The notes under the pieces are model-generated. The model was not told where the DNA came from. It saw nothing but the letters and a program-made list of their open reading frames with translations, and ran no database searches. DNA of 64,000 bases from Escherichia coli (lineage in GTDB: Bacteria > Pseudomonadota > Gammaproteobacteria > Enterobacterales > Enterobacteriaceae): assembly GCF_003019035.1 (NCBI RefSeq), contig NZ_CP027447.1. The stretch is one strand, 5' to 3'. The translations under genes and the position numbers were made by a program. Shown here in pieces: positions 8,175 through 17,700 of this stretch (its first letter is position 1; each line of letters opens with the position of its first letter).

Positions 8175-8262
8175 ATCAATGCCTGATGCCGACTTGTGGG
8201 CCGCCGGATAAGGCATTCACGCCGCATCCGGCGGTTGTGCGAGATGCCTGATGCGACGCAGT
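8175..8262. repeat. REP/BIME palindromic repeat cluster between ytfQ and ytfR
   Basis: Repeated GCCTGATGCGACGC and GCCGGATAAGGC...GCATCCGGC motifs typical of E. coli REP elements. Confidence 0.7.
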
Positions 8263-8301
8263 TGTGTCTTATCTGGCGCACGCTTTACAACGGGGGAAAC
8301 T

Positions 8302-9804
8302 ATGAATACTAACCAACACCAGGAAATCCTCCGCACCGAAGGATTAAGTAAATTTTTCCCCGGCGTCAAAGCGTTAGACAACGTTGATTTCAGCCTGCGC
8401 CGTGGTGAAATCATGGCGCTGCTCGGTGAAAACGGGGCGGGAAAATCAACGCTAATCAAAGCCTTAACCGGTGTCTACCACGCCGATCGTGGCACCATCT
8501 GGCTGGAAGGCCAGACTATCTCACCGAAAAATACCGCCCACGCACAACAACTCGGCATCGGCACCGTCTATCAGGAAGTCAACCTGCTACCCAATATGTC
8601 GGTCGCTGATAATCTATTCATAGGTCGCGAACCCAAACGTTTCGGCCTTCTACGCCGTAAAGAGATGGAAAAGCGCGCCACCGAACTGATGGCATCTTAC
8701 GGTTTCTCCCTCGACGTGCGCGAACCGCTCAACCGCTTTTCAGTCGCGATGCAGCAAATCGTCGCCATTTGCCGGGCCATCGATCTCTCCGCCAAAGTGC
8801 TGATCCTCGATGAACCCACCGCCAGCCTCGACACTCAGGAAGTAGAGTTACTGTTTGGCCTGATGCGTCAGTTGCGCGATCGCGGCGTCAGCCTGATCTT
8901 CGTTACTCACTTTCTCGATCAGGTCTATCAGGTCAGCGATCGGATCACCGTCTTACGCAACGGCAGTTTCGTAGGCTGTCGGGAAACCCGCGAGCTACCG
9001 CAGATCGAACTGGTAAAAATGATGCTGGGGCGCGAGCTGGACACTCACGCGCTACAGCGTGCCGGACGAACATTGCTGAGCGACAAACCCGTTGCCGCGT
9101 TCAAAAATTACGGCAAAAAAGGAACGATCGCACCGTTTGATCTCGAAGTACGCCCCGGCGAGATCGTTGGCCTGGCAGGCTTGCTGGGATCAGGACGTAC
9201 CGAAACCGCCGAAGTGATCTTCGGGATCAAACCTGCTGACAGCGGCACGGCGTTGATCAAAGGCAAACCGCAAACCCTGCGATCGCCACATCAGGCTTCG
9301 GTACTGGGTATCGGCTTCTGCCAGGAAGACAGGAAAACCGATGGCATCATCGCTGCCGCCTCGGTGCGGGAAAATATCATCCTTGCTCTCCAGGCCCAGC
9401 GCGGCTGGCTACGACCGATTTCCCGCAAAGAACAGCAAGAGATTGCCCAACGCTTTATCCGCCAGCTTGGCATTCGCACACCTTCAACTGAACAACCGAT
9501 TGAATTTCTCTCCGGCGGCAATCAGCAAAAAGTGTTGCTTTCACGTTGGCTACTGACCCGACCGCAATTTCTGATCCTCGATGAGCCAACCCGCGGCATT
9601 GATGTTGGTGCCCACGCCGAGATCATCCGCCTGATTGAAACGCTGTGCGCCGATGGACTGGCGCTGCTGGTGATCTCCTCCGAACTGGAAGAACTGGTGG
9701 GCTATGCCGATCGGGTGATTATCATGCGCGATCGCAAACAGGTGGCGGAGATCCCGCTGGCAGAGCTTTCCGTTCCGGCGATCATGAACGCCATCGCGGC
9801 GTAA
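8302..9804 (+). CDS. ytfR: ABC transporter ATP-binding protein with duplicated ATPase domains
   Basis: Two Walker A motifs (GENGAGKST and GLLGSGRTE) and an LSGGNQQK signature; ATG at 8302 chosen instead of the ORF-track start at 8251, which lies inside the REP cluster. Confidence 0.88.
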   Translation: MNTNQHQEILRTEGLSKFFPGVKALDNVDFSLRRGEIMALLGENGAGKSTLIKALTGVYHADRGTIWLEGQTISPKNTAHAQQLGIGTVYQEVNLLPNMSVADNLFIGREPKRFGLLRRKEMEKRATELMASYGFSLDVREPLNRFSVAMQQIVAICRAIDLSAKVLILDEPTASLDTQEVELLFGLMRQLRDRGVSLIFVTHFLDQVYQVSDRITVLRNGSFVGCRETRELPQIELVKMMLGRELDTHALQRAGRTLLSDKPVAAFKNYGKKGTIAPFDLEVRPGEIVGLAGLLGSGRTETAEVIFGIKPADSGTALIKGKPQTLRSPHQASVLGIGFCQEDRKTDGIIAAASVRENIILALQAQRGWLRPISRKEQQEIAQRFIRQLGIRTPSTEQPIEFLSGGNQQKVLLSRWLLTRPQFLILDEPTRGIDVGAHAEIIRLIETLCADGLALLVISSELEELVGYADRVIIMRDRKQVAEIPLAELSVPAIMNAIAA

Positions 9805-9814
9805 GGAGAACAGT

Positions 9815-10840
9815 GTGATGCCTCAATCTCTCCCGGACACTACGCCGTCGAAAAGGCGCTTTCGCTGGCCGACGGGGATGCCGCAACTGGTAGCGCTATT
9901 GCTGGTGCTGCTGGTCGATAGCCTGGTGGCCCCGCATTTCTGGCAGGTGGTGCTTCAGGATGGGCGTTTGTTCGGTAGCCCTATCGACATTCTTAACCGT
10001 GCAGCACCCGTTGCGTTACTGGCGATTGGCATGACGCTCGTTATCGCTACAGGTGGTATCGATCTCTCCGTGGGGGCAGTGATGGCTATCGCCGGAGCCA
10101 CAACGGCTGCGATGACGGTCGCGGGATTCAGCCTGCCGATTGTTTTGTTAAGCGCCCTGGGCACTGGCATCCTGGCGGGATTGTGGAACGGCATACTGGT
10201 AGCGATCCTTAAAATTCAGCCGTTTGTCGCCACCCTGATCCTGATGGTCGCCGGGCGCGGCGTGGCGCAACTGATCACCTCCGGACAGATCGTCACATTT
10301 AACTCACCGGATCTCTCCTGGTTTGGCAGCGGATCGCTGGTGTTCCTGCCAACGCCAGTCATTATTGCGGTGCTGACGCTTCTTCTGTTCTGGATGTTGA
10401 CCCGCAAAACGGCACTGGGGATGTTTATCGAAGCTGTTGGTATCAACATTCGGGCGGCAAAAAATGCCGGAGTTAACACGCGAATCATCGTCATGCTCAC
10501 CTACGTGTTGAGCGGGCTGTGTGCGGCGATTGCGGGCATTATCGTGGCGGCGGATATTCGCGGTGCCGATGCCAATAACGCCGGGTTATGGCTGGAGCTG
10601 GACGCCATTCTTGCAGTGGTTATTGGCGGTGGATCGCTGATGGGCGGGCGCTTTAACCTGCTGCTTTCGGTGGTGGGGGCGCTGATTATTCAGGGAATGA
10701 ACACCGGAATTTTGCTTTCTGGCTTTCCGCCGGAGATGAACCAGGTCGTAAAAGCGGTGGTGGTGCTTTGCGTGCTGATTGTTCAGTCGCAACGCTTTAT
10801 CAGTCTGATTAAAGGAGTGCGTAGCCGTGATAAAACGTAA
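9815..10840 (+). CDS. ytfT: ABC transporter permease
   Basis: Polytopic membrane protein sequence; position in operon; GTG start. Confidence 0.85.
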   Translation: MMPQSLPDTTPSKRRFRWPTGMPQLVALLLVLLVDSLVAPHFWQVVLQDGRLFGSPIDILNRAAPVALLAIGMTLVIATGGIDLSVGAVMAIAGATTAAMTVAGFSLPIVLLSALGTGILAGLWNGILVAILKIQPFVATLILMVAGRGVAQLITSGQIVTFNSPDLSWFGSGSLVFLPTPVIIAVLTLLLFWMLTRKTALGMFIEAVGINIRAAKNAGVNTRIIVMLTYVLSGLCAAIAGIIVAADIRGADANNAGLWLELDAILAVVIGGGSLMGGRFNLLLSVVGALIIQGMNTGILLSGFPPEMNQVVKAVVVLCVLIVQSQRFISLIKGVRSRDKT

Positions 10841-17063: not shown

Positions 17064-17091
17064 CCCTGTTGCCTGCACTCAGGTAACAGGG
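17064..17091. terminator. Bidirectional terminator between cybC and nrdG
   Basis: CCCTGTT...AACAGGG hairpin between convergent genes. Confidence 0.5.
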
Positions 17092-17097
17092 AACTTA

Positions 17098-17562
17098 TCA
17101 TCTCAAATGATGCACCACCTGATTGCTGCTGCCGCGCCAGATCAGGGAAGGGTCTTTTAAATCCTGCATAAATTTGCCGTCGACCAGCACGTTAATCAAA
17201 TCAACAACCTGCATTTGCGCAGCGTTGAGTTCGTCGAGTTTATAGCCTGTCCACACCCAGATGTCTTTACCCGGACATTCGGCGCGGATGCGTTGTACCA
17301 GTTTCAGAATATCCGGCACGTTTTGCGGATGCAGCGGATCGCCGCCGGAGAGGGAAATCCCCTGGCGTTTGATACGAGTGTCATTCAGATCGTTAATGAT
17401 CTGGTCTTCCATTGCTTTGGTAAATGGCTGACCGGAATTTACCCGCCATGTGCTTTTGTTATAGCAACCGGGGCATTCATGAACACACCCGGAGACAAAC
17501 AGGGTGCAGCGAGTGCCGGGGCCGTTGACGATGTCGACAGGATAGTACTGATGATAATTCAT
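17098..17562 (-). CDS. nrdG: Anaerobic ribonucleotide reductase activating protein (radical SAM)
   Basis: CxxxCxxC radical-SAM cysteine motif (CVHECPGC); downstream of nrdD. Confidence 0.92.
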   Translation of the reverse strand: MNYHQYYPVDIVNGPGTRCTLFVSGCVHECPGCYNKSTWRVNSGQPFTKAMEDQIINDLNDTRIKRQGISLSGGDPLHPQNVPDILKLVQRIRAECPGKDIWVWTGYKLDELNAAQMQVVDLINVLVDGKFMQDLKDPSLIWRGSSNQVVHHLR

Positions 17563-17574
17563 TATTTCGCCTGG

Positions 17575-17700
17575 CTTATCAGTCCGCGTGTAGGCTGCAT
17601 CCGGTAATCAACGCCTGATGCGACGCTGTCGCGTCTTATCAGGCCTACAGCCGCTGCCAAATGTAGGCCGGATAAGGCGTTTACGCCGCATCCGGCATTT
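17575..17700. repeat. BIME (several REP units) between nrdD and nrdG
   Basis: Multiple copies of GCCTGATGCGACGC / GCCGGATAAGGCGTTTACGCCGCATCCGGC in alternating orientation. Confidence 0.7.

Follow-up and report, generated by a model that had tools for sequence, protein, structure and literature searches.

The bacterial interspersed mosaic elements (BIMEs) of Gilson, Bachellier and Hofnung consist of repetitive extragenic palindromic (REP) units in alternating orientation with linker motifs between them, and published definitions distinguish BIME-1, in which one Y and one Z1 unit lie across a long L linker that usually carries a site for integration host factor (IHF), BIME-2, in which Y and Z2 units are repeated in tandem across short S linkers, and atypical BIMEs (PMC3333891). 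Binding and cleavage by TnpA-REP need both the GTAG tetranucleotide and a mismatch in the stem (PMC3333891). Here we describe the REP units of a 64-kb segment of an Escherichia chromosome (the window, by which we mean the whole stretch of DNA that was analysed), which aligns colinearly with the 4.44-4.50 Mb region of E. coli K-12. Five recognisable REP units and several decayed remnants were found, confined to three intergenic regions, ytfQ-ytfR, mpl-yjgA and nrdG-nrdD, and we put at about 90% the probability that they are ordinary E. coli REPs, at three sites orthologous to REP sites of K-12. REP repeats have long been known and described from the intergenic spaces of E. coli, where they form hairpins in both DNA and mRNA and misdirect finders of open reading frames, and there is nothing new in the finding itself.

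Several other described systems can be compared with these sites. In the REPtron, REPs flank a RayT gene. The intercistronic REPs of the malE-malF and hisJ-hisQ transporter operons, reported on by Newbury, Higgins and Stern in 1987-88, are the classic mRNA stabilisers; there the REP separates the gene for the periplasmic binding protein from the downstream membrane and ATPase genes of an ATP-binding cassette (ABC) operon, as it does at ytfQ-ytfR, and the likeness is one of position only. REP325/naRNA4 is a 12-unit Y/Z2 array at yjdM-yjdN with a head-to-head Y-Z doublet and a 12-13-nt linker, an arrangement also present at 8202-8278 of the window, although the window has a single Y/Z1-like doublet and at another locus. 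REPs are reported to shield upstream mRNA from exonucleases and to terminate transcription partly in a Rho-dependent manner, and in the yjdMN operon REP325 combines both roles (bioRxiv 10.64898/2026.03.23.713779); on the mRNA roles of REPs, Higgins 1988 and Espeli 2001 are cited in PMC2267715.

REP units in three intergenic regions

The window was compared with K-12 (MG1655) and with strain WB61, using E. albertii as outgroup, and alleles were counted in 5,426 E. coli genomes. Its identity to MG1655 is 96.5-98%, so that it is not K-12, and since the two differ, the K-12 comparison covers an orthologous region and not an identical sequence. WB61 is the nearest complete genome, with 98-99% identity to the window, and among the 5,426 complete E. 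coli genomes the top 12-kb match of the window is 97.9% identical. The units, linkers and remnants at the three sites are as follows.

8172..8193, + strand: decayed REP remnant at ytfQ-ytfR, with a Z-type 5' arm TGCCTGATGCCGAC (8180-8193); BLAST 10/10 to the Z 5' end
8203..8232, - strand: Y-type REP unit, 1 mismatch to the Y consensus; BLAST E=3.5e-10
8233..8244, no strand: 12-nt head-to-head linker, which aligns to the 13-nt linker of Rfam RF02564
8245..8280, + strand: Z1-like REP unit whose 3' arm is damaged, repeat family D11; BLAST 15/15 on the 5' arm
14427..14458, - strand: single Y-type REP unit at mpl-yjgA, 2 mismatches to the Y consensus; aligned with K-12 and WB61
17574..17606, no strand: decayed REP remnants at nrdG-nrdD, beside the nrdG ribosome-binding site; repeat family D2 and short BLAST matches
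17612..17648, + strand: intact Z1-type unit ending in CTAC (17645-17648); BLAST 36/37, E=1e-13
17649..17662, no strand: 14-nt tail-to-tail linker AGCCGCTGCCAAAT, which forms the loop of a long composite hairpin when the transcribed strand is folded
17663..17697, - strand: intact Y-type unit with GTAG (17663-17666); BLAST 34/35, E=3.6e-13

With up to 3 mismatches allowed, the Y consensus GCCGGATAAGGCGTTYACGCCGCATCCGGC matched the 64 kb only at 8203-8232 (1 mismatch), 14428-14457 (2 mismatches) and 17667-17696 (0 mismatches), that is three times, against 0.00 expected from 100 shuffles. The Z1 consensus had an exact match at 17613-17644, with 0 expected; the Z1-like unit at 8245-8280, which differs from it by 4 mismatches, was found by repeat analysis (it is 88% identical to the 17613 copy in family D11) and by BLAST. 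E-values of the units against the consensus sequences ranged from 1e-13 to 5e-6, and all units are extragenic and lie between annotated orthologous genes. A Z2 consensus search found no Z2 unit anywhere in the window, and blastn-short with the consensus of each unit type (Y, Z1, Z2) found no further REPs in the 64 kb. Two candidates were rejected: the only other match with E<0.05, a 14-nt match to the Z1 core at 38589-38602, is a chance match in coding sequence that is shared with WB61, and a copy of repeat family D1 at 12314-12348, with 66% identity, falls within fbp and gives no significant match to any REP consensus. The family is dispersed in high copy number: in other E. coli genomes, queries that carry the REPs were found at a median of at least 38-39 places per genome among the matches listed.

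A first-pass annotation, made from the letters of the sequence, had placed REP-type units at 8175..8262, 14418..14460 and 17575..17700, and direct reading, consensus search and BLAST find them at all three. Of its ranges the last is accurate, but the first breaks off within the loop of the Z1-like unit, whose true end is at ~8280. The motif search with a REP consensus that it had proposed gave Y matches at all three sites and an exact Z1 match at the third, with 0 expected. Its second proposal, a comparison with K-12, also bore out the assignment: by sequence alignment and by the entries of a supplementary table, which names REP336, K-12 has REPs in the same three gaps. The supplied K-12 RefSeq table has no repeat rows for this stretch.

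Orthology with K-12 and decay of the units

In K-12 and WB61 all three sites are flanked by the same genes as in the window, and their sequences are nearly identical to it; at the orthologous sites of K-12 the unit types (Y and Z1), their order and their orientation are the same. The identity, anatomy, folding, orthology and polymorphism of the units were shown directly. The terminal foot, GTAG or CTAC, is retained by two of the five units (CTAC at 17645-17648 and GTAG at 17663-17666) and is absent from those at 8203, 8245 and 14427, whose K-12 orthologues do have GTAG/CTAC.

At ytfQ-ytfR the gap extends over 8170-8301, between the ytfQ stop at 8169 and the ytfR start at 8302, and the REP cluster takes up ~8172-8280. 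In K-12 the REP matches that we found at 4450944-4451028 coincide with REP336, for which the supplementary table gives ytfQ-ytfR, 4450945-4451029 (bioRxiv 10.64898/2026.03.23.713779), and the cluster is the orthologue of REP336. K-12 keeps GTAG and a full Z1 unit at this place, whereas in the window GTAG and the final 9 bp of Z1 are gone: its Y unit at 8203-8232 has GGCC where K-12 has the GTAG foot tetranucleotide, and the 9-bp deletion relative to K-12 removes the CTAC foot (..ATGCCTAC) of the Z1-like unit and leaves a U.U mismatch in the stem. WB61, like the window, has lost GTAG from the Y unit. In the remnant at 8172-8193, the Z arm and a GGCATCA just upstream of it form a 7-bp hairpin (GGCATCA/TGATGCC, 8172-8190) that begins 3 nt past the ytfQ stop and is present in both the minimum-energy and the centroid folds; K-12 is without the left arm, the upstream complement, of this hairpin.

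The mpl-yjgA gap (14403-14484) separates two convergent genes, with the mpl stop at 14402 and the yjgA stop at 14485, and its unit at 14427-14458 has no GTAG. In K-12 this gap is 73 bp longer and contains a Y unit, an 11-nt linker, a Z1 unit and a terminal half-Y, where the window is reduced to one Y unit. This unit is a chimera of the 5' arm of the first Y and the 3' arm ACACCGTATCCGGCA of the terminal half-Y. The same long arrangement as in K-12 is found in E. albertii, and because the two share it we regard the short allele as derived; the long allele is present in 4678/5426 E. coli genomes, the short one being in the minority. The short allele arose by deletion, and its structure is what would be expected if the two 3' arms, which are direct repeats, had recombined with loss of the sequence between them. 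WB61 has a 66-bp tandem duplication at mpl-yjgA which starts inside the REP 3' arm (L002 7904-8051).

The nrdG-nrdD gap covers 17563-17719, from the nrdG start at 17562 to the nrdD stop at 17720, and its REP cluster covers 17574-17697, with the Y unit at 17663-17697 placed 22 nt from the nrdD stop codon. The remnants at 17574-17606, a fragment of a Z 3' arm GCTTATCAGTCC and an internally deleted Y unit GTAGGCTGCATCCGGTA, are identical in K-12 and WB61. Across the window, K-12 and WB61 the array has 98% mean column identity and keeps its position. From the numbering, the elements at mpl-yjgA and nrdG-nrdD presumably correspond to REP337 and REP338 of K-12, as the K-12 table in its entries for the following sites gives REP339 at mgtA-ridA and REP340 at rraB-yjgM (bioRxiv 10.64898/2026.03.23.713779).

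Classification of the arrays

The first-pass annotation had called the features REP/BIME clusters, and this holds for two of the sites: at 8172-8280 and 17574-17697 the units alternate in orientation and are joined by short linkers, as in the BIME families, and the two are BIME-like arrays, but the range 14418..14460 holds one lone unit, so that 14427-14458 is a solitary REP and not a BIME. Unlike BIME-1, with its long L linker, the window arrays have linkers of 12 and 14 nt, and the IHF consensus WATCAANNNNTTR had no match in any of the three REP gaps. Unlike BIME-2, the window has neither Z2 units nor tandem amplification. The best fit for both arrays by the published definitions is 'atypical BIME'.

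Unlike a REPtron, the window REPs have no adjacent rayT. A tblastn search of the window with K-12 RayT detected no homologue (best E-value 0.058, across 33 aa), and in K-12 rayT itself is located at 0.25 Mb. The window REPs are non-autonomous members of the family. Since TnpA-REP needs GTAG and the stem mismatch, only the doublet at 17612-17697 is still a plausible substrate, and the other three units are fossils that are still able to fold.

Predicted folding of the units and gaps

A consensus hairpin derived from 16 units of the window and K-12 has 13 pairs, unpaired C/T at columns 11/27 and a G.U pair at 10/28, with compensatory changes from Y to Z at three pairs (G-C/U-A, G-C/A-U and U-A/C-G). 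The units are thus predicted to fold as the canonical bulged REP hairpin with the internal mismatch of the family. Minimum free energy folds of the transcribed strand were compared with 200 shuffles.

ytfQ-ytfR gap: -59.7 kcal/mol, z=-3.3
nrdD-nrdG gap: -65.1 kcal/mol, z=-4.5
mpl-yjgA gap, + strand: -22.3 kcal/mol, z=-3.5
mpl-yjgA gap, - strand: -32.5 kcal/mol, z=-4.1

In every case 0/200 shuffles folded as stably as the real gap. In the nrdD-nrdG RNA fold, the Z1 unit pairs with the Y unit (17612-17697), which gives one long hairpin around the 14-nt linker. This Z1/Y hairpin is similar to a REPIN, a REP doublet that folds into a hairpin (PMC3116915), although REPINs were defined in Pseudomonas on other sequences and mobility is only putative here.

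Gaps in which K-12 has a REP and the window has none

K-12 has REPs at seven gaps of the homologous span, whereas the window and WB61 have them at the first three only; the K-12 REP gaps without a REP in the window are holC-pepA, lptG-yjgR, mgtA-ridA and rraB-yjgM. The REP complement of this region is therefore reduced in this lineage, with 3/7 of the K-12 sites occupied and 3/5 of the units without a foot; differences of this kind between strains are well documented.

In the exact slots of two of the K-12 REPs the window has a second palindromic repeat (..CCCTCTCCCTTAGGGAGAGGGTTAGGGTGAGGG..), at 41660-41702 in holC-pepA and at 45735-45776 in lptG-yjgR. Its 18-mer occurs in two exact copies in the window against 0 expected, and E. 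coli genomes contain a median of 17 copies of its family. The repeat resembles BoxC and is a candidate BoxC-like element. Both gaps are two-allele dimorphisms among the 5,426 genomes, with 1404 vs 4019 genomes for holC-pepA and 1794 vs 3606 for lptG-yjgR. It is conceivable, if unlikely, that the swap reflects a shared insertion target of the two families or the interchangeability of their hairpins at gene 3' ends, and if true this would link repeat families that are usually treated apart; the swap may equally be ordinary recombinational replacement of intergenic 'loops'. WB61 carries a ~120-bp duplication in the holC-pepA gap (L003 ~41550-41804), which together with its duplication at mpl-yjgA amounts to further rearrangement at repeat-bearing gaps.

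The other two gaps differ in other ways. At mgtA-ridA, where K-12 has REP339 (Y+Z2), the window has a ~560-bp AT-rich segment (27520-28085). It contains an intact open reading frame (ORF) of 153 aa at 27564-28025 on the - strand, with an N-terminal transposase-type helix-turn-helix (PF01527, E=7.8e-9); the C-terminal half of its product is hydrophobic. WB61 is annotated with a transposase fragment only at this place. The rraB-yjgM gap (36304-36348) has a terminator hairpin only, and ~100 bp with the K-12 REP340 are absent.

Possible local function and alternative explanations

Based on the literature of the REP family, the units would be transcribed within the ytfQRT-yjfF mRNA, the nrdDG mRNA and the 3' ends of mpl and yjgA. 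As G+C-rich bulged hairpins without a U-tract they would block 3'-to-5' exonucleases, and the same hairpins would act as partial Rho-dependent attenuators. Two of the arrays are inside operons and lie 3' of the gene that supplies the protein required in larger quantity. The outcome would favour the upstream cistron, that is YtfQ over the membrane and ATPase subunits and NrdD over its activase NrdG, which acts catalytically, while at mpl/yjgA a single hairpin would protect or terminate both convergent transcripts. Transcription, blocking of decay and attenuation at these loci are drawn from what is reported for the family: tandem gene pairs split by a REP have a raised upstream/downstream ratio (median log-ratio 0.96 vs -0.09), and convergent pairs with a REP have higher expression (bioRxiv 10.64898/2026.03.23.713779). 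Two weak hints come from the K-12 entries for the locus itself, in which a NusG-dependent termination region abuts REP336 and the RNA-seq base means are 300 for ytfQ and 206 for ytfR, equivalent to ~2.3-fold per nucleotide toward ytfQ. On this basis we would give slightly better than even odds to a measurable effect of the REPs at these loci.

Several points weigh against such a role. It is extrapolated, and not from this strain or these loci; REP effects are context-dependent (bioRxiv 10.64898/2026.03.23.713779); three of the five units are without GTAG/CTAC and the stem of the Z1-like unit at 8245-8280 is weakened; and REP presence at these and neighbouring sites differs among strains, a pattern no less compatible with dispensable, selfish or neutral elements than with tuned regulators. 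We did not adopt translation-coupled ribosome stalling as a mechanism, as all full units lie 22-33 nt from stop codons. Liang, Rudd and Deutscher reportedly found in 2015 that ribosomes stall if no more than ~15 nt separate a REP from the stop codon. Only the remnant hairpin of 7 bp (8172-8190) is near enough to the ytfQ stop to disturb terminating ribosomes, and it might interfere with them if the reported effect of REP proximity extends to so short a stem.

The main alternative is that the REPs have no local function and are selfish or neutral relics of RayT-driven spread, tolerated as intergenic hairpins, which we regard as possible but clearly the less probable view. Decay is visible in the three of five units that are without GTAG/CTAC, in the clipped arms and in the remnants that flank both arrays; mpl-yjgA lost 73 bp without apparent harm, the long allele being absent from at most 14% of genomes; K-12 has REPs at four further sites of the span and the window has none there; and the number of REPs among strains ranges from 286 to 574 (PMC3333891). 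However, the nrdD-nrdG array is 98% identical in the window, K-12 and WB61 with its position kept, and the genome-wide expression bias at REP-split gene pairs argues for many local effects.

A second alternative is that 8202-8278 is a naRNA4-type gene, whose processed noncoding RNA would bind HU, associate with the nucleoid and condense the chromosome, and naRNA4 has been reported to bind HU and condense DNA (PMC4550694). On the + strand, which is the transcribed one, 8202-8278 matches Rfam RF02564 (naRNA4) over its full length with 61.6 bits, although this scarcely passes the gathering score of 59.5; the remaining REP sites of the window score just 27-42 bits, and 17582-17645 aligns to RF02564 below threshold. 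In K-12 the model matches REP336 with 70 bits, the mpl-yjgA doublet with 86 and two rayT-flanking doublets with 73 and 77, and since it matches several Y-Z doublets it recognises the generic head-to-head Y-Z doublet. The marginal match is explained in this way as a generic REP doublet and appears to be the BIME unit restated rather than a dedicated RNA gene. In addition, REP325/naRNA4 gave no measurable nucleoid compaction and REP-REP contacts were unseen (bioRxiv 10.64898/2026.03.23.713779), and we consider a naRNA4-type gene at this position quite improbable.

The G+C-rich stem-loops at gene 3' ends could also be plain Rho-independent terminators that resemble REPs, and this we think very improbable. 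None of the REPs has a T-run after it, and at no REP coordinate did the terminator scan find a T-run hairpin terminator, yet it detects a real terminator, not a REP, in the 32-bp yjfF-fbp gap (11825-11848, a hairpin of 10 pairs with T-runs) that K-12 data give as bidirectional; moreover, two of the REP sites are inside operons, where the downstream genes still need to be transcribed. That the small ORFs of 21-131 aa and a 517-aa ytfR from 8251, which form in a mechanical ORF list, are real coding sequence has a negligible probability, given the indels of 1, 3 and 9 nt relative to K-12 across the ytfQ-ytfR gap, the AAG of K-12 at the position of 8251, the 500-aa ytfR annotated in K-12 and WB61, and the nature of the sequence as a multi-copy repeat.

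Open reading frames, base composition and annotation

The first-pass annotation was right to attribute spurious small ORFs and alternative starts to the REPs. Fourteen ORFs of 20-517 aa overlap the three gaps, and the 1-, 3- and 9-nt indels between strains show that the gap ORFs are not coding. The ytfR start of the ORF track, an ATG at 8251, is inside the Z1-like unit and 17 codons 5' of 8302. By comparison with the annotation of the 500-aa ytfR in both K-12 and WB61, the true start of ytfR is 8302. The value of the REP assignment is one of annotation hygiene, with ytfR starting at 8302 and not at 8251 and about a dozen spurious small ORFs removed. The sites are biologically textbook, and their only use is as further natural alleles (truncated, GTAG-less and deletion-collapsed) for tests of the influence of REP integrity on decay blocking and attenuation.

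The REPs had also been held to account for GC-rich intergenic structure, which is true of ytfQ-ytfR (59% GC) and nrdG-nrdD (55%) relative to the window (49%), but not of mpl-yjgA (46%). The REP units themselves have 56-67% GC and nearby REP-free gaps 39-48%; the most GC-rich gap in the range is yjfF-fbp, with 62.5%, owing to its terminator hairpin.

Neighbouring genes and other features of the window

The genes that border the two arrays, from the ORF list and from annotation, are as follows.

7213..8169, + strand: ytfQ, periplasmic binding protein gene upstream of the ytfQ-ytfR array, in the K-12 and WB61 annotation
8302..9804, + strand: ytfR, ABC ATPase gene, its start preceded by GGGGG at 8292-8296 and its length of 1503 nt equal to that annotated in K-12 and WB61
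17098..17562, - strand: nrdG, activase gene of the nrdDG operon, downstream of the REP array
17720..19858, - strand: nrdD, anaerobic ribonucleotide reductase gene, upstream of the REP array

The gene order of the window is tamA/tamB, ytfQRT-yjfF, fbp, mpl, yjgA, pmbA, cybC, nrdG, nrdD and treCBR, followed by mgtA, pyrBI, valS, pepA, lptFG, the idn genes, a tRNA-Leu (leuX) and an integrated island. The cytochrome b562 gene cybC (16667-17053) is an intact ORF of 128 aa in the window and in WB61 and is annotated as a pseudogene in K-12. The L-idonate genes idnRTOD-idnK (47335-52424) are present in the window and in K-12, and the 5.1-kb block is missing from WB61.

The tRNA-Leu gene (leuX, 53640-53721) is followed by an integrated element, the whole covering 53640-63822. 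The element encodes an integrase (53914-55161), a DUF6387 protein, a Replicase-family protein (57165-58013, - strand), a MobA/VirD2 relaxase (60250-61569, - strand) and a 'Beta protein' (62707-63822, - strand), and it is unlike the PR-Y/intB remnant that K-12 has at the same tRNA.

Two matches to Rfam families were also recorded. Ysr276 ('Yersinia sRNA 276') matches 42473-42667 on the + strand with 182 bits, antisense within pepA (41714-43225, - strand); the match recurs in K-12 and may merely mirror the conserved coding sequence of pepA. The mgtA leader (24614-24729) contains the magnesium riboswitch RF01056, with 126 bits, as expected.

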